From IMG/VR virus record IMGVR_UViG_3300045988_130413: a DNA stretch of 64,000 bases, one strand, 5' to 3'. Below, piece after piece: positions 19,492 through 63,379 of this stretch. Below the pieces are notes generated by a model that saw nothing but the letters and a program-made list of their open reading frames with translations, made no database searches and was not told the DNA's origin. Position 1 is the first letter of the stretch. Each line of letters starts with the position of its first letter. The position numbers were made by a program, and so were the translations under genes. Source of the DNA: a virus.

Positions 19492-19513
19492 AAGTGGGAA
19501 ATAAATCCCACTT
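19492..19513 (-). terminator. hairpin terminator after gyrA-like gene
   Basis: AAGTGGGA-AATAAA-TCCCACTT. Confidence 0.5.
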
Positions 19514-21890
19514 AAATTTTTGTCACAGAAGTAATTTCACCATTCTTAATTAACTGATTACCTGTTGCAATTCTGCTTGCAAGAGGAATATCTTTTGCGG
19601 AGATACAGATTGAATTTAATTTGCCAACAACAAGAATATTATCTTCGTCCGCAACTAAAGCACCAGAAATAACTGTTCCTGTTTCTTCTGTTGGCTTATA
19701 AATAATTAAGCCTTTTCCCGCACGTTTCTGAAGAACTAATTCATCCATTTCAATCTTCTTTCCAAGACCTTTAGATGAAAAGATTGCAATGTAATCTGTC
19801 TTATTACGAACTGGTAATGCTGCAACTACAAAATCATCTTTCTTTAAAGTAATTCCTTTAACACCTGCTGTTGCTCTACCAGAAGCTGAAATCTCTCCAG
19901 AATTAATCTTAATTCCCATACCATTAGAGGTTAAAAGAACTAAATCTTCATCTTTAACAAGATTTACAGATACTAATGTATCATCCTCTTTAAGATTAAT
20001 AGCAATAATTCCAGTCTTTTTCTTTGTATTTGTATATTCCTCTAATGAAGTTTTCTTTGTAATTCCGTTCTTTGTTACAAATAATAAATACTTTGCATCA
20101 GTATCTCTATAAATAGAATAAATTAAATTAGGTTCTTCATCAGTATCCATCGCAATTAAAGACTTAATTGACTGACCTTTAGATACATTTGTACCTACTG
20201 GAATATCATTTACAAGGATACGATACATTTTTCCTTTTGTTGTAAATACCATCAGAGAATCAATAGTATTTGTGCGGATAGTAGTTTTAACAACATCACC
20301 CTGTGTTTTAACACCTTTTCCGTTTCTTCTCTGGGTTCTGAAACTTGTAGAAGGAATACGTTTAATCAAACCGTCTTCTGTCATTACAACAACGCATTTT
20401 TCTGGTTCTACATATTCAATCTCTTTTTCTTCTTTTGTGATATTTACCTGTGTGATTGTAGTTCTACGAACATCTCCATATGAGGTTTTAATCTCTGTAA
20501 AGTTCTTTTTCATTTCTGGAACTGGATTTAAAAGAATCTGATTTAATTCGCCTTCTTTAATTAATAAAGAATCTTTTTCATTCCTTATTTCAACAGACTC
20601 TAATTTTGCTAAACGAGATAATTTCATATCCAAGATTGCTTTAGACTGTGCCTCGCTAAGATTATATTTATTCATAAGAACAACTTTAGCTTCAGCCGCA
20701 CTTGCAGACTTTTTAATGAGTGAAATGATATTATCAATATCCTCTAAAGCAATAAGTAATCCTTCAAGAATATGAATTTTAGCCTGAACTTTTTCAATAT
20801 CAAATTTAGTTTTTCTTAAAAGAACATCTTTTTGATGCTCAATATAGTTTTCTAATAATTGTTTGATATTAAGAAGTCTTGGCTTTTTGTCAACCAGTGC
20901 AACTTGGTTGAATGAATACGTACTTTCAAGTCTTGTGGATTTAAAAAGTTTTGCAATAATTGGAGCTGTTGACACTCCTTTTCCCAATTCAATAACAAAC
21001 CTGACACCTTTTTGGTTTGATTCATCGCGAATCGTTGTAATGCCATTAATCTCACCTTGTTCACAAAGGTTGTCAATTTCAACAATTAAATCCTCCTTTG
21101 AAACCTTATAAGGCATTGAAGTGAAAACAATACTATCTCCGCTTTTGGAAGATTCGATTGTATATTCACCTCTTAATCTTGCACGACCTTTTCCTGTAAG
21201 ATAAGCTGTTTCAAGTTCATCTTTATTAATAAGTAATCCACCTGTTGGAAAATCTGGACCTTTAATATAGTTTAAAAGCTCTCTAATGTCGCATTCTGGA
21301 TTTTCCAAAAGATGAATAGCTGCATCCATAACTTCTGATAAATTGTGAGGTGCAAATGAACAAGCCATTGCCCATGCAATTCCAGAAGTACCATTCACGA
21401 TAAGATTTGGAACGCGGCCAGGTAAATAAACTGGTTCCTGCTCTTCATCTGTATAAGCATTCATCCAATCTACTGTATTCTTTTTAATATCAGCAAGCAT
21501 TTCTTCTCCGAGCTTAGAAAGCTTACATTCTGTATATCTGTATGCAGCCGGTTCATCACCATCTCGGCTTCCATTATTACCATGCCAAGAAATGAGTGGA
21601 TATCTCATATTCCATTCCTGTGACATCCATACTAATGCACCATAAATAGAACTATCACCATGCGGATGAAATCTACCCATTGTATCTCCGACCGGCTGAG
21701 CGCACTTTACAAATTTCTTATTATTCATAAAACCTTTATCAAACATATCATATAAGATACGTCTATTAACAGGTTTTAATCCATCTTCTGCTGAAGGTAA
21801 AGCTCGATCTGAAATGATACTCATTCCATAATCAAGTAAACTCTGTTCAATTTCATCTTTAATATTTACTTGAATAATATTCTCACTCAT
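19512..21890 (-). CDS. gyrA: type II topoisomerase subunit A (GyrA/ParC-like)
   Basis: HPHGD motif, active-site AAYRYTE, 792 aa. Confidence 0.85.
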   Translation of the reverse strand: MSENIIQVNIKDEIEQSLLDYGMSIISDRALPSAEDGLKPVNRRILYDMFDKGFMNNKKFVKCAQPVGDTMGRFHPHGDSSIYGALVWMSQEWNMRYPLISWHGNNGSRDGDEPAAYRYTECKLSKLGEEMLADIKKNTVDWMNAYTDEEQEPVYLPGRVPNLIVNGTSGIAWAMACSFAPHNLSEVMDAAIHLLENPECDIRELLNYIKGPDFPTGGLLINKDELETAYLTGKGRARLRGEYTIESSKSGDSIVFTSMPYKVSKEDLIVEIDNLCEQGEINGITTIRDESNQKGVRFVIELGKGVSTAPIIAKLFKSTRLESTYSFNQVALVDKKPRLLNIKQLLENYIEHQKDVLLRKTKFDIEKVQAKIHILEGLLIALEDIDNIISLIKKSASAAEAKVVLMNKYNLSEAQSKAILDMKLSRLAKLESVEIRNEKDSLLIKEGELNQILLNPVPEMKKNFTEIKTSYGDVRRTTITQVNITKEEKEIEYVEPEKCVVVMTEDGLIKRIPSTSFRTQRRNGKGVKTQGDVVKTTIRTNTIDSLMVFTTKGKMYRILVNDIPVGTNVSKGQSIKSLIAMDTDEEPNLIYSIYRDTDAKYLLFVTKNGITKKTSLEEYTNTKKKTGIIAINLKEDDTLVSVNLVKDEDLVLLTSNGMGIKINSGEISASGRATAGVKGITLKKDDFVVAALPVRNKTDYIAIFSSKGLGKKIEMDELVLQKRAGKGLIIYKPTEETGTVISGALVADEDNILVVGKLNSICISAKDIPLASRIATGNQLIKNGEITSVTKI

Positions 21891-23222: not shown

Positions 23223-23386
23223 TTAATAACCTCTTTAGCTTTTAAATATTCTTTCCACACTTTTGGAGTTACATGTATCCAGCCGTCTTCAACTCCAACG
23301 GCCAGATACATTGCATCATTATACGTCAATATTTGCTCTCCACGCATTCTCTTCGATAAATTTCTTTCTATAAACAACTGACTCAC
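23159..23386 (-). CDS. hypothetical protein (overlaps gyrB exon 2 in another frame)
   Basis: 75-aa ORF; may be spurious given overlap with exon 2. Confidence 0.25.
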   Translation of the reverse strand: MSQLFIERNLSKRMRGEQILTYNDAMYLAVGVEDGWIHVTPKVWKEYLKAKEVIKWKQKYLNLYQKSQNTLNPNF

Positions 23387-23507
23387 CCATCAATCCCATG
23401 AAAGTTTTAGCAGCTTCTTCTGCATCTTCCATACATATCTGTTTAAGAGTTCTGGTTTCTGGATTCATAACTGTTTCAGCCATTTCGGACGGGTCCATCT
23501 CACCTAC
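23320..23507 (-). CDS. gyrB: type II topoisomerase ATPase subunit (GyrB/ParE-like), exon 2 (C-terminal 61 codons)
   Basis: Translation (L)GEMDPSEMAETVMNPETRTLKQICMEDAEEAAKTFMGLMGESVVYRKKFIEENAWRANIDV aligns with GyrB C-terminus [22 protein letters not shown]...[25 protein letters not shown]. Confidence 0.7.
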
Positions 23508-24539
23508 GTATTACTCCAATGTCACCATTGGTACTGACTATTTCTTCACTCCGGCTAACGTATTAACTGCCTTCATCATGTCCACCTTTTTGAAATACGT
23601 ATCAATAGTATTTCTACTTCCCGACAAAGGGAATAGTCGATACAGGCTTAAACTATAATTTTTTTCCAGTTTCTATAAGACCAAACATTTTCAAAAGATT
23701 TATAAGTTAATTTGTCAGAATAATCATTGTAAACGGAAGATAACTGCTCTCCATTTTTCTTTCTTAAGCGAATATTTTTAACATCTTCTTCTGTTAATTT
23801 AGACCTTCCGTTTTTAGAACCTACATTTGAAGTATTATGAGCATGAAAATCTTTATTTTCTTTTGTATAAACTTCTGGCATTATTGTTTTCCATGTTGAA
23901 CCATTCCAAATTTTATGAAAGCCAGATTCCCCAATTAAATGAGCATATAATAAATAAACGTCTTTTTTTCTTTCGTGATTTTTATATCTCGTTCTAATAT
24001 CAATCACATCCTTTTCAGTTAATTTATGACTTGGATGACATTCACCTGCATTAAATTGTCCTCCTGGAGTCATATTATATTGATTAGGATATGTACTATA
24101 ATATCCAATCCAATATTGTTCTTTATCATTTAATTCTTCTTTTTTGCATTCTTCTAAAACGGAAAAATCAAAATTTTGTAATCCAAATTGAATAAATGCT
24201 TTATAAAGACTTTTATTAGATTCTCTTGCCCAATTTGTAGGATTTTTATGTTCTATAAATCTTTCTTCTATTTGAGTGCTTTGTCCAATATAAGCATCTC
24301 CATTAATTTTGTTTGTTATCTTATAAATTCCTATCATATTGAATACCTCACATAATAAAATGTAAGATAATCTCTTATAGTTTTTTCCCACGAGATTATC
24401 TCCAAGAATATTTAAGTTTTATCCATTTCAGGATTTCCTGAAATACCCAAAATATTTTGAAGACTGCCTCGTTAGCTATTATCTAAGATAATAACCCCTC
24501 TGATTAGAGGAAAAGTGGATAAGGGCCAGACTATCTCTT
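23508..24539 (-). mobile_element. group I intron (1032 nt) in gyrB-like gene, carrying a GIY-YIG homing endonuclease ORF
   Basis: 5' exon ends in U; intron IGS GCCCUU 12 nt downstream pairs with exon AAGGGU (G-U at splice site); intron ends in G before TAGGTGAG; structured GC-richer flanks; splicing restores RMKG-L-GEMD (RYKGLGEMN motif). Confidence 0.65.
23648..24391 (-). CDS. GIY-YIG homing endonuclease (I-TevI-like, NUMOD repeats), intron-encoded
   Basis: IGIYKITNKINGDAYIGQSTQIEERFIEH..., repeated HKLTEKDVIDIR / SKLTEEDVKNIR. Confidence 0.75.
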   Translation of the reverse strand: MGKNYKRLSYILLCEVFNMIGIYKITNKINGDAYIGQSTQIEERFIEHKNPTNWARESNKSLYKAFIQFGLQNFDFSVLEECKKEELNDKEQYWIGYYSTYPNQYNMTPGGQFNAGECHPSHKLTEKDVIDIRTRYKNHERKKDVYLLYAHLIGESGFHKIWNGSTWKTIMPEVYTKENKDFHAHNTSNVGSKNGRSKLTEEDVKNIRLRKKNGEQLSSVYNDYSDKLTYKSFENVWSYRNWKKIIV

Positions 24540-26250
24540 ACCCTTTCATACGACCCAGCTCAAAAGATTTTTTAGTTGTCTTTCTGAACTCCTCAAGAGC
24601 CGCATCATCTTTCAGATAAGTAATCTTAGTTCCTTGTGTAACTTTATACAGTGGAGGAACTGCCGCAAAAATATATCCATCTTCAATTAACTGCGGAGCA
24701 AATTTCCAAATGAAAGTCAAAAATAATGCTCTAATGTGGCTACCATCAACATCCGCATCGGCTGTAATAACAATTTTACCATAACGCAGTTTATCTTTAT
24801 TTACAATTACTTTTCCGTCCTTAATTTCAAGTCCAAAAGCAGTAATCATACCATCAATTTCTGCGTTCTTTAACGCCTTCGCAAGGTCTGCCTTCAATAC
24901 GTTAAGAATCTTTCCTCTTACGGGGAACACAGCCTGGGTAGCTCTATCCCTGGCTTCTTTTGTTGAACCGGCCGCAGATTTTCCCTCTACAATAAACACT
25001 TCACAAGAAGCTCTATTTCGAGAACTCGCATCTGCTAATGTACCAGGCATTACTGCTCTTTTCTTCACATCTGCTTTACGAACTGTTTCTTTAGCTTTTT
25101 TAGCTTTCTCTCGTGCGGCACGTGCTAATAAAGCCTTATTAATAATTGCTTTTGCATCATTAGGATGACTGTCAAGCCAAATTGCAATCTCTTTTGATAC
25201 CAGCTTCTGGACCATTGTACGTCCTTCACTTGAATCAAGTTTCTCTTTTGTCTGACCTGAAAAGACTGGGTCTGGCATCACAAAAGAAAGAACTAATACA
25301 AGACCTTCTTTTAACTCATCTCCTACAATATTAGAATCCTTCTCTTTAAGAAGTTTATTCTCTCTTGCATAATTATTAATTGCAGAAGTTAATGCAGTTC
25401 TAAATCCAGTAAGATGAGTTCCAGCTGTATTTGGAATTGAGTTTGTATATAATTTATAAGTATCAGTATAACTATCGTTATACAGCATTGCTAATTTTAC
25501 ACCAATTCTATCTTCGGAAGCTTCGGCATAAAAAACAGATGTAATAGTATTTTTCTTTTTATTCAAATCTTGAATATAATCCAGAATACCATTCTGAGAA
25601 ACAATTACATCTTCAGCTTTGTCTTTATATTTTAATGTAAAAGTTAATCCAGGAGAAAGATATGCTAATTCCTGAATCTGTCTTTTTAATTCTTCATAAT
25701 CAAGTGAAATTTCTTCTTTAAAAATCTCAATATCTGGATGAAAAATAATTGTTGTTCCAGTATCTTTTCCCGCATACTTTTCAACCTTAAAATCTTTTCT
25801 TTCACCTTTTTCAAATGTCATTGTTGCAATTTTACCATCTCTTTTGGAAGTGACAATAAATTTATCAGACAATGCATTTGTCGCTTTTGCACCAACACCA
25901 TTCATACCACCAGATGTATTATATCCAGTTTTACCAGAACTATCAAATTTAGCTCCTGTATGAAGTTTTGTAAAAATATTTTCAAGAGTTTCTGAACCGT
26001 CTGCCGCCTTTCCAAAAGGAACACCACGTCCATCATCAGAAACTTTTACCATGTCATCTTCTGTTACTTCAATATTACACTTTGTACAATATCCGTTTAA
26101 ATACTCATCAATTACGTTAGAAATAATTTCAAGAGTAATATGTCTAACTCCATCTGGTCCGATTGAGCCTATATACATACCAGGTCTAAGCCTGATGGCT
26201 TCGATACCTTCCAAAGTTTTTATGTCTTTTACACCATAATTCTCAGACAT
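24540..26250 (-). CDS. gyrB: type II topoisomerase ATPase subunit (GyrB/ParE-like), exon 1
   Basis: GHKL ATPase and TOPRIM domains; ends ...PPLYKVTQGTKITYLKDDAALEEF...GRMKG at the 5' splice site. Confidence 0.85.
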
Positions 26251-26329: not shown

Positions 26330-26361
26330 TTCTTAAAATTTTAGTTACGGTCAAAAAAAAA

Positions 26362-26394
26362 TACCCTAAAAGAGAAAAATCTTCTCTTTTAGGG
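26362..26394 (-). terminator. hairpin terminator after holin-like gene
   Basis: ACCCTAAAAGAGA-loop-TCTCTTTTAGGGT. Confidence 0.5.
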
Positions 26395-26405
26395 TTAAAA
26401 ATCAA

Positions 26406-34745: not shown

Positions 34746-35924
34746 TTATCTCCTCTGCATAATTCCAAAAGGATTGTCGCTATAATAGTCTCCTTCAATT
34801 TGAGGAGCATATTCATTACAATGAGTAATGATAATTTTTTTAGAAAATCTTGTATCAAGTTTGACTTTTTCAAAATCATTGTCAATTCGAGTAATTACAT
34901 CACTTTTTTTCATTACACCATATCTTAATCCGCCCTGGAAATCATTGTGTACATTTGTTTTATCAAACATCTCTGTATTGATTTCTTTTTTCTGAGCCTC
35001 CTGCTCAATAGGACCAACCCCATGTCTGGTTACATATGAACGTGTTACATAGCAAGCATCAACTGAAATGTCTTTTTTATCTGCTAAAATCTCAAAAGGA
35101 TATGTTACTCCTGTACGAGAAGTGGTATGCCAAATATCATCATAATAAAAATCAAGTCCTAATCCTTGACCATTTTCAAAGATAAAACTATCAAACTTAT
35201 TATAAAGATTATCAAAAGTAATAATTTCATTTCTCTCAAGGAAAAATAATATATCACTTCTAAAATTACAAATTAAAGACTGTCTACCAACAGAATGTTT
35301 ATCAAAATACTCTCTGTAAGTAGTAATTTTATCAAGCTGCACTCCACGTTTAAAAAGAATTACAAGACAATCTCTCCAAATTTCTTCCATATGAAAAAGA
35401 TATTCTTCGTCTGTCCAGCTTGCAAAATCAGCAACCGTAAAATGAGTCTTCATTGTAGGGTCGCCATATCTGTCCTCAATAGCACACCAAGAGCCAAAAC
35501 CGCAAGAACCATATTCTCTTTCACCATTCTGCTCGGCAATCCAATTTTCTGTAATATGGTCAATCATCATATCAAAAGGAGTAATTACTTTTGCTTCTGG
35601 ATCAACATATCCCTTTAAATTCAAAGGAAATAAATGCTGTTCTAATAATTCATAATACTCCTTTGTATAAGTCATAGGATGAATAAAAAAGGTTTTCGCA
35701 AAAAAAGTTGGAACTCCTTCTGCGGTTCCACTCCCAAAATGATGATATACATGCCGTAACTTGGTTGTATAATCAACTGTATGACCACGCTGAGCTGTTC
35801 CATTGTGAAAGATTACTACTGGCTTTAAGCCTCGATTAAGAGCATCTTCACAAAAATGATTTGTTACAAGACCTTTTCCTTCATCTCCAAAGTTTGCTCC
35901 AATAACAATTTTACTTTCTTTCAT
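34746..35924 (-). CDS. adenylosuccinate synthetase-family protein (PurA/PurZ-like)
   Basis: N-terminal GANFGDEGKGLV P-loop and NGTAQRGHTV match PurA GDEGKGK / GGHNAGHT; divergent elsewhere. Confidence 0.6.
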   Translation of the reverse strand: MKESKIVIGANFGDEGKGLVTNHFCEDALNRGLKPVVIFHNGTAQRGHTVDYTTKLRHVYHHFGSGTAEGVPTFFAKTFFIHPMTYTKEYYELLEQHLFPLNLKGYVDPEAKVITPFDMMIDHITENWIAEQNGEREYGSCGFGSWCAIEDRYGDPTMKTHFTVADFASWTDEEYLFHMEEIWRDCLVILFKRGVQLDKITTYREYFDKHSVGRQSLICNFRSDILFFLERNEIITFDNLYNKFDSFIFENGQGLGLDFYYDDIWHTTSRTGVTYPFEILADKKDISVDACYVTRSYVTRHGVGPIEQEAQKKEINTEMFDKTNVHNDFQGGLRYGVMKKSDVITRIDNDFEKVKLDTRFSKKIIITHCNEYAPQIEGDYYSDNPFGIMQRR

Positions 35925-57817: not shown

Positions 57818-58906
57818 ATGATTTATTTAGATAATAATGCGACAACTAAGCCTTTTCCAGAAGTAATTAAAATATTTGAAGAATCTTCTTTTGCTAATCC
57901 ACATTCAACCCATTCTGCAGGTTTATTAGCAGATAAAGAGCTACAGTCCGCAAAAGAAAGTATTGCAAAAGATATTGATTGCGAACCAGACGAAATATAT
58001 TTTGTAGGAAGTCCAACAGAAGCCTGTAATTGGGCAATTCAAATTTTACGAGATAAAGAATGTAAAATAAATTATCATAAATATGAACATAGCGCAGTAT
58101 TAAAACCTATTTTAGCTTTTCCAGAAGTAGAGAATCCTAAACGAAATGGATATGTACAAATGCTTGTAAATAATATTTATGGAGAAATTTATAATATCCC
58201 CATAAGAGAACATGAAGATGATATTATTTTTTGTGATGGTACTGCGGCGATTGGGCATATTCCTTTTAGTTTTAAAGAATCTGGTATTGATATGCTTGCT
58301 TTTGGAGCACATAAATTCAATGGATTAAGAGGAATCGCTTGTTTAATAATTAAAAAAGATTTACTTCCAGTCCGTTCATTATTATGGGGTGGAGATATAA
58401 CTGGCGGCACTCCTTGCCAAGGTCTTGCATCTGCAATGGCATATGCTTTACATAAAAATATTGAGCATATGAGCGAAAATACAAAAAAGACTAAAGAAAT
58501 GCAAGATTATATTATTAATGAACTAACTACAATTCCATTTTCACGAATTAATGGACCGATAGGAAATAATAGAATTTCTAATAATGTAAATATTAGTTTT
58601 TCATATATATCTGGTTCAGATTTACAAAAGTATCTTAGTGATTATAATATTTGTGTTTCTACTGGAAGCGCTTGTGATTCAAGCAGTTTTGTTGAGTCCA
58701 GAGGTGGTATTTGTGTGCGGCCATTGAAAAAAGATAATCGAAGAGAACCTGAATTGGTTACAATATTTAAAGCCGGTGGAATGGATGAAGATGATGCAAA
58801 AAGTTCAATTAGAATTACCTTAGATGCAAATTATAATACTATGGAAGAAATTGAAGAGTTTATTAACACCCTTAAAAATATTATTAAATTAAATAGACCT
58901 ATATAA
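57818..58906 (+). CDS. NifS/IscS-like cysteine desulfurase (class V aminotransferase)
   Basis: LDNNATT, FANPHSTHSAG, PLP-lysine region AFGAHKFNGLRGIACLII; only plus-strand gene. Confidence 0.7.
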   Translation: MIYLDNNATTKPFPEVIKIFEESSFANPHSTHSAGLLADKELQSAKESIAKDIDCEPDEIYFVGSPTEACNWAIQILRDKECKINYHKYEHSAVLKPILAFPEVENPKRNGYVQMLVNNIYGEIYNIPIREHEDDIIFCDGTAAIGHIPFSFKESGIDMLAFGAHKFNGLRGIACLIIKKDLLPVRSLLWGGDITGGTPCQGLASAMAYALHKNIEHMSENTKKTKEMQDYIINELTTIPFSRINGPIGNNRISNNVNISFSYISGSDLQKYLSDYNICVSTGSACDSSSFVESRGGICVRPLKKDNRREPELVTIFKAGGMDEDDAKSSIRITLDANYNTMEEIEEFINTLKNIIKLNRPI

Positions 58907-58907
58907 C

Positions 58908-58945
58908 AAAAAATCCAGTCTTAATAATAAGACTGGATTTTTTGT
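58908..58945. terminator. bidirectional terminator
   Basis: A6-TCCAGTCTTA-ATAA-TAAGACTGGA-T6. Confidence 0.6.
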
Positions 58946-59283
58946 TTTTCTTTTTGTTCACGTCTATCTCTTTCAATTTTACGCATTTCTTTTAGTCGCT
59001 TACAATTATTGCATCCATGATGATCACAATTACAATCCCAACAGCCATCAGTATCTAACCAAAACCAATTTGGTGGTTGCGGTTTAGGTTTGCGAAAAAT
59101 CTTTTTCTTGCTCATCCATACTCTCCCATCTGCGACGGTCCATTCGACACCAGTTACGCTTGCCCGCACTATAATGTCCTTTTGGATTTGTTTTAAACTG
59201 ACCAGAGCAACATTCACATGAACAAAAATTCTTATTTTTACTATAGGCATGAAGATTTCTATACCATCCATCTTCCCATCCAT
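58921..59283 (-). CDS. hypothetical Cys-rich protein (frame-overlapping with 59084..59365)
   Basis: CWDCNCDHHGCNNC; 200-nt overlap with neighbour in another frame. Confidence 0.25.
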   Translation of the reverse strand: MDGKMDGIEIFMPIVKIRIFVHVNVALVSLKQIQKDIIVRASVTGVEWTVADGRVWMSKKKIFRKPKPQPPNWFWLDTDGCWDCNCDHHGCNNCKRLKEMRKIERDRREQKEKQKIQSYY

Positions 59284-59365
59284 ATACTACTTCAGCAATA
59301 TATCTTTTGTGTTTTGCTTTTCTGATAGATTGTTTTCTTCTAATTCCTCTGGCATTTCTTCGCAT
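59084..59365 (-). CDS. hypothetical basic Cys-rich protein
   Basis: AGGAGG RBS 6 nt before ATG; CSCECCSGQ. Confidence 0.4.
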   Translation of the reverse strand: MRRNARGIRRKQSIRKAKHKRYIAEVVYGWEDGWYRNLHAYSKNKNFCSCECCSGQFKTNPKGHYSAGKRNWCRMDRRRWESMDEQEKDFSQT

Positions 59366-59414
59366 ATGAAACCTCCTATATTAAAAATATAAAGGGGGCA
59401 TATGCCCCTTTATA

Positions 59415-59765
59415 TTAAAGTGTTTTTTCAATAGCCGCAACATTGGCTTTTGCTACATTGCAAGCCTCATTTGCGTCTAAAAGATATTCCTGCATTTTTA
59501 CAAGATGTGTCTGAGCTTCGATAACTTCCTGGAGCGCCTCAGAAACTTTACTTGCGGCTCTCTTAGCTCTTTTTTCTGCAATCTTTGCATTACAACGGGC
59601 AATAGCAAGCTCAGTACCTTTTTCTACATCAAAGGTGTCTCTTGGGTCTGCCTTTGCATAGCCTTTTACATTTTTACCTGCATAAGTGCTTACTGCAATT
59701 ACTTTCCGCTGATTCTGGTCTACAAATACCCGATATTTTTCTTTACCAAAAGTAGTTTTCATCAT
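59415..59765 (-). CDS. hypothetical protein
   Basis: 116-aa ORF behind consensus promoter. Confidence 0.4.
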   Translation of the reverse strand: MMKTTFGKEKYRVFVDQNQRKVIAVSTYAGKNVKGYAKADPRDTFDVEKGTELAIARCNAKIAEKRAKRAASKVSEALQEVIEAQTHLVKMQEYLLDANEACNVAKANVAAIEKTL

Positions 59766-59805
59766 TTTTTAAATCTCCTTTATCTCTTATCTTTAATATA
59801 AATAT

Positions 59806-59834
59806 ATTATATAATATTTTTTATATAAAATCAA
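59806..59834 (-). promoter_or_regulatory. consensus phage promoter
   Basis: TTGATT-17-TATAAT. Confidence 0.5.
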
Positions 59835-59859
59835 TATGGCAATCTTTTTGTCTAAAAAA

Positions 59860-60295
59860 TTCTAAAACGCTTTTTTGTTTTGGGTTTGCGGTTCTCTCGT
59901 TCGGGTCCGGCGCGAGCAGCTTATGCTTTTCATATGAGCTGGATTTATATAAAAAATAGCCAATAAAAACCTTTTCATGCGACCCCTTACTTTGCAAGCG
60001 TTCATTATTCATGCTCCTTGCACTAAACCCACCTATAAAAATCCATCAGGGGCCTGGTTCACTACTTTAGTTTTTATTGACTATCTTCCCATTAACAAAG
60101 TCTTTATTCAATATGGTCAACTTAAATAGGATTGTTTAAAAGACTGTATTAAGGATACCTTATAATTCGTGCCATATTCACTACACATAAATAAAATACC
60201 TATTATTTTTAAGAGCCTGCCTACCTCTTATGCAGCAGTTAGTCCCTGCTTGCCGAAGCCAGTTATTAAAGGGAACTGTTAGGTTGCACCCTGAT
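59860..60295 (-). ncRNA. ORF-free, GC-richer structured region downstream of interrupted tRNA 2 (candidate ncRNA)
   Basis: ~435 nt without convincing ORF (the 59821..60012 ORF is likely spurious), many local hairpins. Confidence 0.25.
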
Positions 60296-60339
60296 GGGGA
60301 GTGATGGAGTCGAACCACCCGAGACCGAAGCCACCAGTT
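60296..60339 (-). tRNA. 3' half of second interrupted tRNA gene (T-arm + acceptor 3' strand)
   Basis: AACTGGTGGCTTCGGTCTCGGGTGGTTCGACTCCATCACTCCCC; ACTCCCC pairs with GGGGAGT at 60812-60818. Confidence 0.4.
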
Positions 60340-60762
60340 TTATGCCTTATCCAAGATTTGAACTTGGTATTTATAAGTTTGAAATCCTTGATTATTTATT
60401 GTAGGAGCATTTCGTAAAGCTATTCTATTACGATTACCAGCTTTAAGAATATCTTTTACTGGAATACACCACATGTCTAAATTTTTATTTACACAAAATA
60501 AAAAATCAAGCTCAGAATGATTTATAATATTATCATAGACGGCTCCTTTTGTCCCTCCTGTATTTCTCAAACTAATTTCTCCACTTTCAGTTTGAGTAGC
60601 TTTACATTGTACAGTTTTTAAAACACCGTCTTTTTCAATTATCAAATCATACCACTGAGTGTCATTTAATGGAAGAGAAACTGTATATCCTTGACAAGTA
60701 AAATAATTTATTGCCATACTTAATCCAATTCTTCCAATTTGTTTTCTATTAATTTCATTCAC
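60340..60762 (-). CDS. Hjc-like PD-(D/E)xK nuclease encoded inside interrupted tRNA gene (paralogue 2)
   Basis: GTG start with AGGAG RBS; GYTVSLPLNDTQWYDLIIE...LKTVQCK aligns with 54605..55027 product. Confidence 0.5.
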   Translation of the reverse strand: MNEINRKQIGRIGLSMAINYFTCQGYTVSLPLNDTQWYDLIIEKDGVLKTVQCKATQTESGEISLRNTGGTKGAVYDNIINHSELDFLFCVNKNLDMWCIPVKDILKAGNRNRIALRNAPTINNQGFQTYKYQVQILDKA

Positions 60763-60780
60763 TATAAAATCTCCTATTAA

Positions 60781-60818
60781 GACCAGACTGGCCTGCTACC
60801 CCTACAGTATAACTCCCC
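60781..60818 (-). tRNA. 5' half of second interrupted tRNA gene
   Basis: GGGGAGT-TA-TACT-GTAGGGGT-AGCA-G-GCCAG-TCTGGTC. Confidence 0.4.
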
Positions 60819-60823
60819 GAGAT

Positions 60824-61174
60824 TTAAATGAAATCAACTTTATCAAACATTGGAGCATAACTCTTAACATGATTATGAGTTAAAATGCCCATCAAAGTTT
60901 CTTTATCATTTTCTTCTATAATATAAATATGAACTGTATCACTTGTAATAGCTTGTCTACCTTTTGGAGCAGTTAATAATTTAGCACATTTCTCAACTCT
61001 TTGCATATCAGTTGTGTTTAATTCCATGCGTCCTCGACTACTAACAACCGCAAATATTGGTTTGCCATTTTTAATTTTCGGCTTTGTATCAATAATCTTA
61101 CCGCACCAATTAATATTATATTCTTCATGTACATCTGTTACAATAAGATGAGTCTTTACTAAAACTTCTGCCAT
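60824..61174 (-). CDS. hypothetical protein
   Basis: 116-aa ORF. Confidence 0.35.
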   Translation of the reverse strand: MAEVLVKTHLIVTDVHEEYNINWCGKIIDTKPKIKNGKPIFAVVSSRGRMELNTTDMQRVEKCAKLLTAPKGRQAITSDTVHIYIIEENDKETLMGILTHNHVKSYAPMFDKVDFI

Positions 61175-61180
61175 TATTCT

Positions 61181-61372
61181 TTACTCCTTAAAAGAATTGA
61201 AGAAATTCATTATATCTTCATTCACCTGTCTTGTTTCAATATTCTCACTCCTTGGAGCAGATTTAGAAACATGAGATGGATGTTGCTCTTTCCAACAGGG
61301 AAGAAAATGTTTTGAAAGACTTTCTTCTTTTTCAAATTTTCTTTTACAAGTAGGACAAATATACATATTCAA
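61181..61372 (-). CDS. small zinc-finger protein
   Basis: CPTCKRKF...HFLPC. Confidence 0.35.
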   Translation of the reverse strand: MNMYICPTCKRKFEKEESLSKHFLPCWKEQHPSHVSKSAPRSENIETRQVNEDIMNFFNSFKE

Positions 61373-61380
61373 TCTCCTTT

Positions 61381-61800
61381 TATTTATAAGCTACTCTTGT
61401 AGAAATAGTGTGATTAAAAATAGCCAGATACTAAAATATTCTTTCTTAGCAGGAAAGCGCCCTATATGAGCAATATAATTGCTGTATGTATCTGTTTATT
61501 CACTTCATTAAAAGATGACGCTTTTAATGAAATTAGCTTTCGATACCATCTCTGTCAAGCCCTTAGCTTATAAGGACAGTGAAGTGTAAGCCCCTCACCA
61601 GAATCTCATGCTTCCCATTGATTTACAAGGCTATAGCACAAAGCAACCTTGGGAGACTCTCATAGGTCATCTATGGCTGAGCATCTTCCTTAACTCAGAC
61701 TTTAAAATATTAAACCGTGCTACTTATTCCTAAACTATTTCGTAGCTATCTCCATCAGCATCATTTCAGATACTATACACATAAGATTTTGTGATTTAAT
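61381..61800 (-). ncRNA. ORF-free structured region upstream of tRNA-Gln (candidate ncRNA/leader)
   Basis: ~420 nt, no ORF on either strand, moderate GC. Confidence 0.25.
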
Positions 61801-61806
61801 ATTAAA

Positions 61807-61878
61807 CTGGGGTAGCTGGATTCGAACCAGCGAATACGGCAGTCAAAGTGCCGGGCCTTACCGCTTGGCGATACCCCA
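61807..61878 (-). tRNA. tRNA-Gln (anticodon UUG)
   Basis: TGGGGTATCGCCAAGCGGTAAGGC...CGGCA-CTTTGAC-TGCCG...GCTGGTTCGAATCCAGC-TACCCCA; near-identical framework to E. coli tRNA-Gln. Confidence 0.85.
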
Positions 61879-61883
61879 TCATT

Positions 61884-61950
61884 TCAAGACACATTTTGAA
61901 TTATTGCCTAACCACTTGGCTATTTATGCACCCTGAGCATAAAACTGGAT
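61884..61950 (-). ncRNA. rearranged/possibly permuted tRNA-like element
   Basis: 17-nt exact copy of the tRNA-Gln T-arm (CTGGATTCGAACCAGCG), then TTTATGC, 7-nt spacer, complementary GCATAAA, then U8-A9 and D-arm GCC-AAGTGGTTA-GGC. Confidence 0.3.
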
Positions 61951-62302
61951 TCGAACCAGCGTTAATAATTTGCTATAAGCAAAATTTGCTGTGTGTGTCT
62001 TAAAAGATATTTCTTAAATTTTTAAAAGAGAGGTTTTTAATTAACAAGACTCGTAAAGTTCTAATAGTAATCCTATCAATAATCCCTATTTACTTCAACT
62101 CAAATTATTGGTCATCGGCTGGAGCCGGACTACCGGCGTTCTTGTTATCCTTTTAATTACATTAAAAGAAATTTGCTGATCCGAGTCTATTATATTTTTA
62201 ATAATCGGGTGGATTTGCACTCGCCTTACCTCTGTAACCTACAGAACCCTTGGAAGATAAACTTCCTTAGCACCTTGCAATTATTATTTACTTTATATAT
62301 TT

Positions 62303-62331
62303 ATTATATCATTTATTTTATAAAAAATCAA
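62303..62331 (-). promoter_or_regulatory. consensus phage promoter driving ~320-nt untranslated leader and tRNA array
   Basis: TTGATT-17-TATAAT. Confidence 0.45.
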
Positions 62332-62953
62332 ATGATATAATGCCTGGCGTTTCAGGTACTTTTTAACCCTAACTTGCGGAATGCCGCAAGGTCTGATATT
62401 CACGCGTGCTCCTTTAGTACCATGGGGCTTAGGTCTCGACCAAGTAGCGGTACTCATTTCATAGCCGGGGCTCTTGGAAGATGGTTTAGTTCGTTTTATA
62501 CCGCCTACTCCTTAGGGCGGGAGTCCTATGGAATGGATTCGAACCATTCTAATAGTTATATATTCTCGATTGTACTTATTAAAATACTCATAATGTTTTT
62601 CCTGACTATTATCATTATTTTCTTAAAACAGTTTACTCTCTACCTTCAAACCTTTTCTTAACGATACCCAAGTGTTTTTCTAAAATATTCCAGCCAGTTG
62701 AAATAAATAGAAATCAATCGTGCATAGGATAATATATACTTTTTAATACTTGGTGTGCTATTACGCCAAAAGAGAATTCATCCTTACCAGTTACGGGGTG
62801 ACTTCATACTTCTTTTCCAGATGTGTGCGGTTTTAGATAAATATTCTGGATTTTAACTTATCATCCTTCTTACTCCTACTTGAAGAAGCCTCACACATAA
62901 AAGCTCTACTCTTTAAAAGATGGCTGCCTCTAAGCCAACTTTCCAAGTATTAA

Positions 62954-63027
62954 TCGGAATGGCGGGATTCGAACCCACGACCTCTTCATCCCAAATGAAG
63001 CGTGCTACCAAGCTGCACCACATTCCG
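62954..63027 (-). tRNA. tRNA-Pro (anticodon UGG)
   Basis: Acceptor CGGAATG/CATTCCG, anticodon arm CTTCA-TTTGGGA-TGAAG, T-arm GTGGG-TTCGAAT-CCCGC. Confidence 0.85.
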
Positions 63028-63249
63028 TTTTAATTCTCAAGACGAAATCCTCCCGTGAGGACAAGATACAATCAGGAGTCGAACCTGAAGGTTTTTAGTA
63101 TATGCAGTATATTCTTTTGAATTAAATAATATTGCAGACTTCGTCTTTTAGTTAATAAAGTCTTTTCTTTCTTTACCGCCACCTCATTCTTTAGACGGAA
63201 GAAATTTCAAAACTGATTGGAAAGAGTACCTTTATTAACTTATATATTT

Positions 63250-63278
63250 ATTATATCATTTATTTTTATAAAAATCAA
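63250..63278 (-). promoter_or_regulatory. consensus phage promoter upstream of tRNA-Pro leader
   Basis: TTGATT-17-TATAAT. Confidence 0.45.
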
Positions 63279-63307
63279 TTTATTTTATTTTTTGATTTTT
63301 ATAAAGA

Positions 63308-63379
63308 TGGAAGTGGAAAGAATCGAACTTTCGTGACGGCGTTATCAGCACCGCATACTAACCGTTGTATGACACTTCC
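63308..63379 (-). tRNA. tRNA-Ile (anticodon GAU)
   Basis: Acceptor GGAAGTG/CACTTCC, D-arm ATAC-AACGGTTA-GTAT, anticodon arm CGGTG-CTGATAA-CGCCG, T-arm GAAAG-TTCGATT-CTTTC. Confidence 0.85.

Follow-up and report, generated by a model that had tools for sequence, protein, structure and literature searches.

Group I introns that carry GIY-YIG endonuclease genes are classical in DNA-metabolism genes of phages, as in the td gene of phage T4 with I-TevI, and several of them can interrupt a single gene, as in phage Twort. The Twort orf142 introns I1 to I3, reportedly described by Landthaler and Shub in 1999, belong to subgroup IA2 and self-splice in vitro, and just one of them encodes an endonuclease. 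A crystal structure is available for I2 (PDB 1Y0Q). Another arrangement is the split gene, for which T4 gp39/gp60 with mobA and NrdA of Aeromonas phage Aeh1 with mobE are precedents; the T4 gene is truly split and its products assemble as a protein. Here, a stretch of 64,000 nucleotides (nt) of viral DNA was analyzed (IMG/VR record IMGVR_UViG_3300045988_130413; this whole stretch is called the window), in which a topoisomerase B-subunit gene is interrupted by an insert of 1,033 nt. With a probability of roughly 93%, this insert belongs to the mobile group I introns, in the Twort-like phage type IA2; it is located after the first base of the Leu codon in the KGLGEM motif. All features described for this gene and its insert lie on the minus strand of the record.

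Many group I introns in core genes, mostly IA-like and often split by nuclease genes, were likewise described for the Bastillevirinae (NAR 2025, PMC11878797) and for the Jug gut jumbo phages (Sci Adv 2026, PMC12880540). Metatranscriptome reads confirmed 37 of the 76 introns predicted for the Jug phages, which carry 18.5 introns per genome on average (PMC12880540). Their genomes span 360–402 kb, which is larger than the ~195 kb of the present phage group. Subgroup IA2 makes up more than half of the viral group I introns (PMC11835236). Topoisomerase or gyrase as an intron host is absent from the Bastillevirinae survey (PMC11878797), occurs in the text on the Jug phages only once, in a list of single-copy core genes (PMC12880540), and is not among the hosts in a 2014 review of bacterial and phage group I introns (PMC3984707). 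The novelty of this study lies in the host gene with its insertion site, in the phage group, in a polymorphism that affects three motifs within one gene, and in the escape of the family from Rfam. The understanding of group I introns as such is unchanged, since a known phenomenon is extended to a new host gene and phage group.

Host gene and boundaries of the insert

The GyrB-like open reading frame (ORF) at 26250–24538 comprises 570 amino acids (aa) and ends with ...ELGRMKG and a TAA at 24540–24538, which is the stop at 24538 after GRMKG that was noticed in an earlier reading of the DNA without database searches (the sequence-only reading). In this part, the Pfam domains HATPase_c, DNA_gyraseB (E 1e-49), Toprim and GyrB_hook were identified, and the domain DNA_gyraseB_C (PF00986, E 2.9e-17) is encoded at 23506–23319. 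The sequence-only reading had rightly placed the C-terminal tail 1 kb downstream, at coordinates (23507–23320) that were one base off. The stop codon at the end of exon 1 arises because the last exon U and the first two intron bases AA form UAA. The parts of the interrupted gene are as follows:

24540–26250, minus strand: exon 1, type IIA topoisomerase B subunit (GyrB-like), from the ORF and Pfam domains; last base T24540
23507–24539, minus strand: group I intron of 1,033 nt, from A24539 to the terminal G23507; absent from nine related contigs
23319–23506, minus strand: exon 2, GyrB C-terminal domain (L)GEMDPSEMAETVMNPETR...ANIDV and stop; PF00986, in frame after joining
Predicted joined junction (RNA/DNA): exon 1 end ...GUAUGAAAGGGU followed by exon 2 start UAGGUGAGAUGGAC...
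Peptide across the predicted junction: ...GRMKGLGEMDPSE...

Joining T24540 to T23506 gives GGG U|UA GGU and restores RMKG-L-GEMD in frame, as had been proposed. The resulting product of 632 aa (...RMKG-L-GEMD..., ...GRMKGLGEMDPSEMAETVMNPETR...) unites the GHKL ATPase, transducer, Toprim and C-terminal tail domains in one polypeptide. Its alignment to the GyrB family agrees with the joining over the full length: more than 100 of the 120 best database proteins are continuous proteins of 632 aa, 97–99% identical at 100% coverage. These homologues are encoded on contigs of up to ~200 kb and carry PF02518, PF00204, PF01751 and PF00986. By its domains, the host gene is assigned to the type IIA topoisomerase B subunits (GyrB/ParE/T4 gp39 family), at a level that does not distinguish gyrase from topoisomerase IV or the T4 type. 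The closest relatives of the protein among GenBank phages, human faecal 'Bacteriophage sp.', are only ~44% identical.

Relatives of the gene are encoded on 11 IMG/VR contigs. According to the DNA alignment the insert is absent from nine of them (L001, L003, L004, L005, L006, L007, L009, L011 and the more distant L008), and the other two (L002 and L010) carry the same insert with ~98% identity. The insert-free contigs align to the window up to 24542 and again from 23504, with 4 nt in between. Since 1,037 nt of the window remain unaligned compared to these 4 nt, exactly 1,033 nt are absent (24539–23507), which corrects the 1,032 nt counted before. The DNA identity to the close relatives was 94–97% for exon 1 and 96–98% for exon 2; for L008 it was 75% (up to 24542) and 84% over 99 nt, respectively. 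The boundaries are far beyond chance, and the exact ends are confirmed by the empty-site alleles.

The insert starts with AA and ends with G23507, so that both the U as last exon nucleotide (T24540) and the G as last intron nucleotide are as the sequence-only reading had stated. A terminal G precedes exon 2 in every homologue with a readable junction (L002, L010, L007, L009, L039, L045, L126, L027 and Lactococcus phage LW81). The splice-site rules, a U at −1 paired with the guide G and a G as last base, hold in readable homologue junctions at three sites of the gene. Intron-less alleles read ...ATGAA(A/G)GGTC|TTGG(C/T)GAG... at the junction (GGTT|TGGGC in L007), and intron-bearing alleles ...ATGAAAGGGT|TAGGTGAG.... 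Both kinds encode MKGLGE, with 3–4 synonymous differences clustered at −2 to +6. The U at −1 and the GGGU required for P1 were found in intron-bearing alleles only. The corresponding target sequences are:

L001-type intron-less target: ...ATGAAGGGTCTTGGCGAG...
Engineered intron-less counterpart target: ...AAAGGGTTAGGTGAG...

These alleles also bear on the view that a dead mobile element has turned the GyrB-like gene of this phage into a pseudogene. Decay does occur within the family, as shown by degenerate endonuclease ORFs in two members (L031 and L073), but an inactivated gene is extremely improbable for the window. At the DNA level its exons share 94–98% identity with alleles of close relatives that have no interruption; the joined protein is 97–99% identical and has neither a frameshift nor a stop. 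In addition, the partner gene for the topoisomerase A subunit is intact nearby (19512–21890), the endonuclease ORF is intact in the window, and the same insert is maintained in two other contigs.

The reading frames contradict the remaining alternatives, which have next to no probability and were rejected: an intein, a translational bypass as in T4 gene 60, and a group II intron. Inteins are known from GyrB genes of bacteria and archaea (PMC4760082, PMC4071816), and the bypass in T4 gene 60 spans 50 nt (bioRxiv 10.1101/2022.08.31.505936). However, an intein is excluded because the insert opens with an in-frame stop and is out of frame with the exons, the 1,033 nt far exceed any known bypass, and neither a reverse transcriptase nor a group II match was found with Rfam and Pfam on the region.

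RNA fold and covariation

For the analysis of the RNA fold, homologous introns were collected in a scan of IMG/VR with an exact 21-base pattern (GTATCGACTATN{8,38}CTATTGATAC), which matched at least 120 loci. The fold coordinates were read on the window sequence after comparison with these introns. A first fold from the single sequence (P3 GUCUUCA/UGAAGGC, P4 UUUUG/UAAAA, P6 AAAUAU/GUAUUU, P7 GAC/GUC) was overturned by the homologous introns. The following elements were assigned:

24545–24540 with 24526–24521, minus strand: P1, exon AAGGGU with guide GCCCUU (intron nt 14–19), 13-nt loop; read from the sequence
24531–24527 with 23506–23502, minus strand: P10, guide GUCUG with exon 2 UAGGU, 5 pairs; read from the sequence
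24519–24513 with 23587–23581, minus strand: P3, UCCACUU with AGGUGGA; covariation in 29 introns and best-helix table for 81 introns
24496–24511 (24511–24506/24501–24496), minus strand: hairpin hpA, UCCUCU-AAUC-AGAGGG, first of two between P3 and J3/4; covariation
24475–24495 (24495–24487/24483–24475), minus strand: hairpin hpB, GUUAUUAUC-UUA-GAUAAUAGC; covariation
24474–24472, minus strand: J3/4, UAA, directly after hpB
24471–24467 with 24395–24391, minus strand: P4, CGAGG with UCUCG, enclosing the P5 arm; family pair counts
24464–24459 with 24403–24398, minus strand: P5, GUCUUC with GGAGAU, with a long P5a/P5b extension; family pair counts
Within 24391–24471, minus strand: P5a, AAUAUUU with AAAUAUU, and P5b, UAUUUCAGG with CCUGAAAUG; read from the window sequence only
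24389–24387 with 23646–23644, minus strand: P6, GGG with CCU, pairing across the ORF; family triplets
23639–23633, minus strand: P7 5′ strand CGACUAU (R element), preceded by J6/7 GUAU; pairs with AUAGUC[A]G
23619–23632 (23632–23629/23622–23619), minus strand: P7.1 hairpin UCCC-UUUGUC-GGGA; covariation
23592–23614 (23614–23608/23598–23592), minus strand: P7.2 hairpin GAAAUAC/GUAUUUC with conserved loop UAUUGAUAC; covariation
23547–23580, minus strand: P8, CAU/GUG and GGC/GCC, loop AGUUAAUACGUUA; the position covaries in the family
23534–23546, minus strand: J8/7 AAGAA and P7 3′ strand AUAGUC[A]G (S element, 23541–23534), A23535 bulged
23516–23531 (23531–23526/23521–23516), minus strand: P9 hairpin CCAAUG-GUGA-CAUUGG with GNRA loop, followed by AGUAAUAC and the terminal G23507

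The P1 pairing of GCCCUU with the exon and its wobble at the splice site, both claimed in the sequence-only reading, were borne out, the wobble being formed by U24540 and G24526. P10 shows a compensatory change in L126 (guide GUCCG, exon 2 UGGGU). The P7 helix is preceded by a J8/7 of the AAGAUAUAGUC type, here AAGAA, which is characteristic of the R and S elements. Between P1 and P3 no P2 was found, and two covarying hairpins lie between P3 and J3/4, which differs from the canonical IA2 order P1-P2-P3-J3/4-P4.

The fold is conserved and covaries among the related introns. For the 3′ halves, 27 sequences were used, with the window and its near-identical copies excluded. Here, 96.9% of the cells pair compared to 35–40% when the partners are slid by 1–3 columns, both partners have changed in 21 of 29 pairs, and none of 500 shuffles matched any measure. 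For the 5′ halves (26 sequences), 93.7% were paired compared to 36–54% in the slid controls. Of 500 shuffles, none reached the observed value for three measures, whereas 20 did so for both-side changes and 116 for further pair types. When 29 whole introns were analyzed after deletion of the ORF, the window included and P3 written as a pseudoknot with P7, 57 pairs in 10 helices were paired to 90.4% (~41% slid) and 38 of these pairs change on both sides.

In the 29 introns, five pairs of P3 occur each with AU, CG, UA and GC. In tight windows of 12 nt the contrast between matched and mismatched strands of P3 was modest (at least 6 base pairs (bp) in 53% vs 17%), because the anchors shift by 1–2 nt, and the count in the aligned introns is more suitable as a test. 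The P6 pairing was complete (100%) in the 29 ORF-deleted introns, and the triplets flanking the ORF are paired in all 86 distinct introns in seven combinations (GGG/CCU 54, GAC/GUU 11, GGC/GCU 10, GUC/GAU 6, GAU/AUU 3, GUG/CAU 1, GCG/CGU 1). Changes on both sides were found for 4 of 4 pairs in P7.1 (100% paired), 6 of 7 in P7.2 (98% paired) and 6 of 6 in P9. From 86 ORF-deleted introns in a plain MAFFT alignment, RNAalifold recovered P4, P6, P7, P7.1, P7.2 and P9 but not the long-range P3. A further pairing of GUAUC before P7 with GAUAC in the P7.2 loop is possible, with both strands fixed by the search pattern.

The P9 loop is associated with a motif in P5. All 25 introns that carry CCUAAG...UAUGG, the 11-nt GAAA-tetraloop receptor, have a GAAA loop on P9, and introns with a GUGA or GUAA loop, as in the window, never have this motif. 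This agrees with the established L9-P5 contact in group I introns.

The guides follow their own exon. A P1 of at least 6 bp is formed in 47% of the family introns compared to 20% of mismatched exon-guide combinations. At different sites, the pairs are AAGGGU/GCCCUU, AGCGUU/GGCGCU, AUUGGU/GCCAAU and GAGGAU/GUCCUC, with more matches elsewhere (UGGU/GCCA, ACGU/GCGU, GAGGU/GCCUC and AGGCU/GGCCU). Taken together, the alignments support a conserved core P3-P4-P5-P6-P7-P8-P9 with a P3/P7 pseudoknot. The ribozyme core, whose absence the sequence-only reading had named among the observations that would speak against it, was thus found through covariation across related introns.

The same evidence bears on a split gene, in which an endonuclease cassette would have cut the gene in two, the parts would be translated separately and assemble, and the RNA structure would be a relic. 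T4 genes 39/60 with mobA have likewise an endonuclease-associated break near the C-terminal part of the same protein family, and assembly of fragmented phage replication genes as a protein is documented (PMC3045599). In the window, an ATG at 23498, 8 nt into exon 2, opens an ORF of 59 aa, and the homologue in phage LW81 was deposited as two coding sequences (CDS). Nevertheless, a split gene is very unlikely. The ATG is the Met of the conserved GEM motif and is also present in intron-less alleles. No ribosome-binding site was found in the sequence at a usable distance from it: the sole purine-rich stretch, AGGUGAG, ends 0–1 nt before the ATG and is unsuitable because it is too close. A relic would not retain compensatory changes in ten helices, guides matched to the exon and the terminal G, and ORF-less copies are found at the same codon without an endonuclease that could account for them. 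Unlike T4 39/60, the window has a ribozyme fold, a guide and splice-site rules, and its joined frame equals the uninterrupted homologues.

Relation to Twort introns and the wider intron family

From the 3′ and 5′ halves of the collected introns two covariance models, R1 and R2, were built without the window. R1 matched the window at 23502–23651 (104.4 bits, E 1.1e-23) and R2 at 24381–24535 (75.2 bits, E 8.6e-18), and these two intron halves are the only strong matches in the 64 kb. Two weak R1 matches on the plus strand (60066–60152, 20.1 bits, E 0.005; 58101–58207, 18.8 bits, E 0.01) are AT-rich, skip most of the model and are probably due to chance.

In the Twort record AF132670, whose CDS annotation reads 'contains group 1 introns', R1 matched I2 (47.7 bits, E 3e-11), I3 (21.2 bits) and I1 (11.7 bits), and R2 matched the 5′ half of I1 (35.8 bits, E 1e-8) and I2 (17.4 bits). 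A Twort sequence agreed with its database record at 97% identity. The insert is homologous in its RNA core to these self-splicing introns. Features common to its family and the Twort introns are P7 (CGACUAU / AUAGUC[N]G), the P7.1 and P7.2 hairpins, GAAAU before the 3′ strand of P3, the GNRA type of the P9 loop, CCUAA...UAUGG in the P4-P5 arm, and the presence of several introns per phage gene. In the Twort introns a P2 hairpin precedes P3, and P3 is followed directly by J3/4; the window family has no P2 and two hairpins between P3 and J3/4. In the alignment of R2 to Twort I1, 36 model positions of hpA/hpB are replaced by 2 nt; therefore the family, compared with Twort, lacks P2 and has a two-hairpin insertion. 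The host genes are also different, the Twort CDS being annotated as 'tail tube protein' in one Twort genome record. P7.1 and P7.2 lie between P7 and the 3′ strand of P3, which is the feature of subgroup IA2. By its homology to the Twort introns, the window intron is accordingly a probable member of the phage IA2, Twort-like type.

The td intron of T4 lies likewise in a phage gene of nucleotide or DNA metabolism and has a GIY-YIG ORF looped out of P6. Its J3/4-P4 is UAAA-CGGGG compared with UAA-CGAGG in the window. It differs in host gene and insertion site, and the DNA-binding domain of I-TevI has no sequence match in the window endonuclease.

The introns of the window type share the block GCUAACG(A/G)GG...AAUC(U/C)CGUG(G/U)GAAA and a second block, GUAUCGACUAU-hairpin-AGUA-hairpin with loop UAUUGAUAC ... 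GAAAU ... AAGA(N)AUAGUCAG-hairpin. Among 50 upstream exons of family members, the hosts were GyrB/Toprim (14), DNA polymerase III alpha (11), DnaB (6), NrdD (4), DHH/RecJ (2) and topoisomerase IV subunit A (1). Within the topoisomerase B gene, the family occupies three sites (PVRG|K, DADVDG|S and KG|LGEM). Homologous introns with GIY-YIG ORFs were found at DADVDG|SHI in L007 (5510–6602; window ~24742–24738) and at PVRG|KILN in L009 (2803–3986) and L010 (5329–6509; window 24912/24911). L010 thus has two introns and an upstream endonuclease gene in its topoisomerase B gene, and the window gene is without the introns at PVRG|KILN and DADVDG|SHI.

At the identical codon position of KG|LGEM, ORF-less copies of ~280–310 nt are present in L045, L126, L027 and Lactococcus phage LW81, and in two of the three contigs the copy begins with the same AAGAG(A/U)UAGUC(U/C)GGCCC. 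In LW81 (KY554777.1) the intron (2318–2629 of L133; 108.4 bits with R1) is at ...SKG|LGEL... and has the same AAGAG start, the guide GCCCUU and the terminal G. It differs from the window intron in that it has no endonuclease ORF and that its P5 carries the CCUAAG/UAUGG receptor. The LW81 record gives two 'subunit B' CDS (LW81_101 and LW81_102) and no intron. An essential replication gene can tolerate a stop-filled insert only when the insert is removed, so that the ORF-less copies support splicing.

A megablast search of the region against GenBank phages gave no match, and blastn of the 3′ half matched only Enterococcus phages EF1/EF5 and Lactococcus phage LW81. In EF1 (MF001358.1, L132), which like LW81 is an isolated and sequenced phage, the family match at 2033–2164 lies between two 'hypothetical protein' CDS, with no intron annotated.

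With Rfam, no group I intron was found on the whole region and nothing on the 5′ segment, and none of 25 related loci, ORF-less members included, reached the gathering score. For RF00028 (Intron_gpI) the gathering threshold is 50 bits. The Infernal check with this model, which the sequence-only reading had suggested, failed this threshold: the best result was a partial match of 18.4 bits (E 0.0095) on a 3′ segment of 201 nt, over J8/7-P7-P9, in which GUGAAGAAAUAGUC and the hairpin behind it are aligned to the consensus UgAAGAUAUAGUC. The ORF-less LW81 homologue scored 14.7 bits over the full length (E 0.21). The negative Rfam results were taken as uninformative because the family matches the Twort introns through R1 and R2. 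Rfam and GISSD models were described to match one side only or to fail on phage introns split by nucleases (PMC11878797). Since RF00028 misses the family even without the ORF, phage intron counts based on it are too low; R1 and R2 recover both the family members and the Twort introns.

Several observations weigh against a mobile group I intron of this type. P7 is invariant in the family and gives no covariation support, and its invariance, like that of the P7.2 loop, is partly a product of the collection pattern, which fixes both. In the window, P8 is short, interrupted (3 + 3 bp) and weak, and three of the five P10 pairs are wobbles. The hairpins hpA and hpB are located where Twort introns have nothing, and the RF00028 scores of the window and of LW81 are far under 50 bits. 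Homing into the sampled intron-less alleles may be blocked because these differ at the 3–4 synonymous positions right at the junction. Splicing activity is inferred from the sequences rather than observed.

In the proposed mechanism, transcription of the topoisomerase gene would run through the intron, and the RNA would fold into the P3-P9 core with P1 presenting the U·G pair at 24540. An external guanosine held in P7 would attack at 24540, and the freed 3′-OH of exon 1 would then attack after the terminal G23507, with P10 aligning exon 2. The outcome would be an mRNA for the protein of 632 aa. On unspliced RNA, translation would end right at the junction (GGG UAA), giving a protein without the C-terminal domain.

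For the annotation, this means that the GyrB-like gene belongs in the databases as one joined CDS of 632 aa, where gene callers and the LW81 record give two fragments. More tentatively, and rather doubtfully at this stage, the introns may form a large, mostly unannotated clade of Twort-related phage introns that is invisible to Rfam, lacks P2, carries a covarying two-hairpin module and has repeatedly colonized catalytic motifs of replication genes. If this holds, the presence or absence of the intron among phages of 94–98% identity would be a live homing polymorphism for studying intron-mediated competition of gut phages.

Endonuclease gene, proposed homing and genome neighbourhood

The ORF in the P6 loop comprises the following features:

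23648–24337, minus strand: GIY-YIG homing endonuclease gene, 229 aa, intact (ATG 24337, TAA 23648); PF01541
24351–24345, minus strand: Shine-Dalgarno-like GUGAGGU, 7 nt before the endonuclease ATG

The stop codon of this gene is one base away from the P6 3′ strand CCU. The product matches PF01541 (E 7.9e-9; 36.1 bits with a cut-off of 22.6) and, over its full length, phrog_7168 'homing endonuclease' (E 3e-35). Residues 3–90 align with the catalytic domain of I-TevI (PDB 1MK0/1LN0, E 7e-6), and in the alignment to 1MK0 the catalytic positions are kept (GIY, YIG, Arg of EERF, Glu of KEQYW and Asn of QYN). The description of the ORF as I-TevI-like therefore stands for the catalytic domain and does not extend to the DNA-binding region, for which no sequence match was found. 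For the C-terminal 135 residues (beyond ~95), sequence searches gave no match in Pfam or PDB. Likewise, the linker, zinc finger and helix-turn-helix domain of I-TevI had no sequence match, the PDB chains found being only those of the 97-residue catalytic domain. The C-terminal part contains two repeats of ~55 aa of the KLTExDVxxIR type (...(S/H)KLTE(E/K)DV..IR...W...W), which presumably bind DNA.

The protein is predicted to be an active endonuclease with its target near the insertion site. It would presumably cut the intron-less alleles of co-infecting relatives there, and repair would then copy the intron together with flanking exon sequence into the cut allele (homing). In L031 and L073, which are from other phages with an intron at the same KG|LGEM site, the endonuclease ORF stops right after YIG, C-terminal fragments remain open and the ribozyme parts are intact. 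This decay is an expected stage of the homing cycle. The locus is a natural system for homing, target-site immunity through synonymous changes at the junction, and endonuclease decay.

The P6 loop also contains GAGAUUAUCUU (24374–24364), which lies 13 nt before the Shine-Dalgarno-like site and is complementary over 11 nt to the P5/P4 3′ strands GAGAUAAUCUC (24402–24392). L031, L073 and L055 retain a version of 7–9 nt at this place. This could be an alternative pairing that couples folding of the ribozyme to expression of the endonuclease, or just reflect shared ancestry.

Free-standing GIY-YIG genes (247–249 aa), of a lineage other than that of the intron ORFs, were found at the start of the topoisomerase gene in L006 (3076–4004) and L010 (3150–3996). 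The insertion corresponds to window ~26195–26243; the N-terminus of the gene is replaced, and the original 5′ end persists upstream as a short duplicate. Neither insertion showed ribozyme motifs. The gut-phage relatives thus vary in endonuclease-bearing introns at three motifs and in a free-standing GIY-YIG gene at the gene start.

The window represents a phage replication module, and related contigs are 120–200 kb in length. Besides the topoisomerase II A subunit, it encodes an NAD-dependent ligase, a RecJ-like exonuclease, a DnaB-like helicase, RNase H, PhoH, an RNA ligase and an endolysin-like protein with an SH3 domain. Six tRNA genes (Rfam tRNA, 58–74 bits) lie within 10 kb at 53622–63379 on the minus strand.

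A protein of 392 aa similar to adenylosuccinate synthetase is encoded at 34746–35924 on the minus strand (PF00709, E 1.4e-18; phrog_1211). By this similarity it could be of the PurZ type, which would suggest 2-aminoadenine in the phage DNA.

At 26353–26395 on the minus strand, just upstream of the promoter-like region of the topoisomerase gene, CCCUAAAAGAGAAG...CUUCUCUUUUAGGG forms a perfect hairpin with a U run behind it. This hairpin matches Rfam SR6_antitoxin weakly (E 0.4) and most likely serves the preceding gene as an intrinsic terminator.

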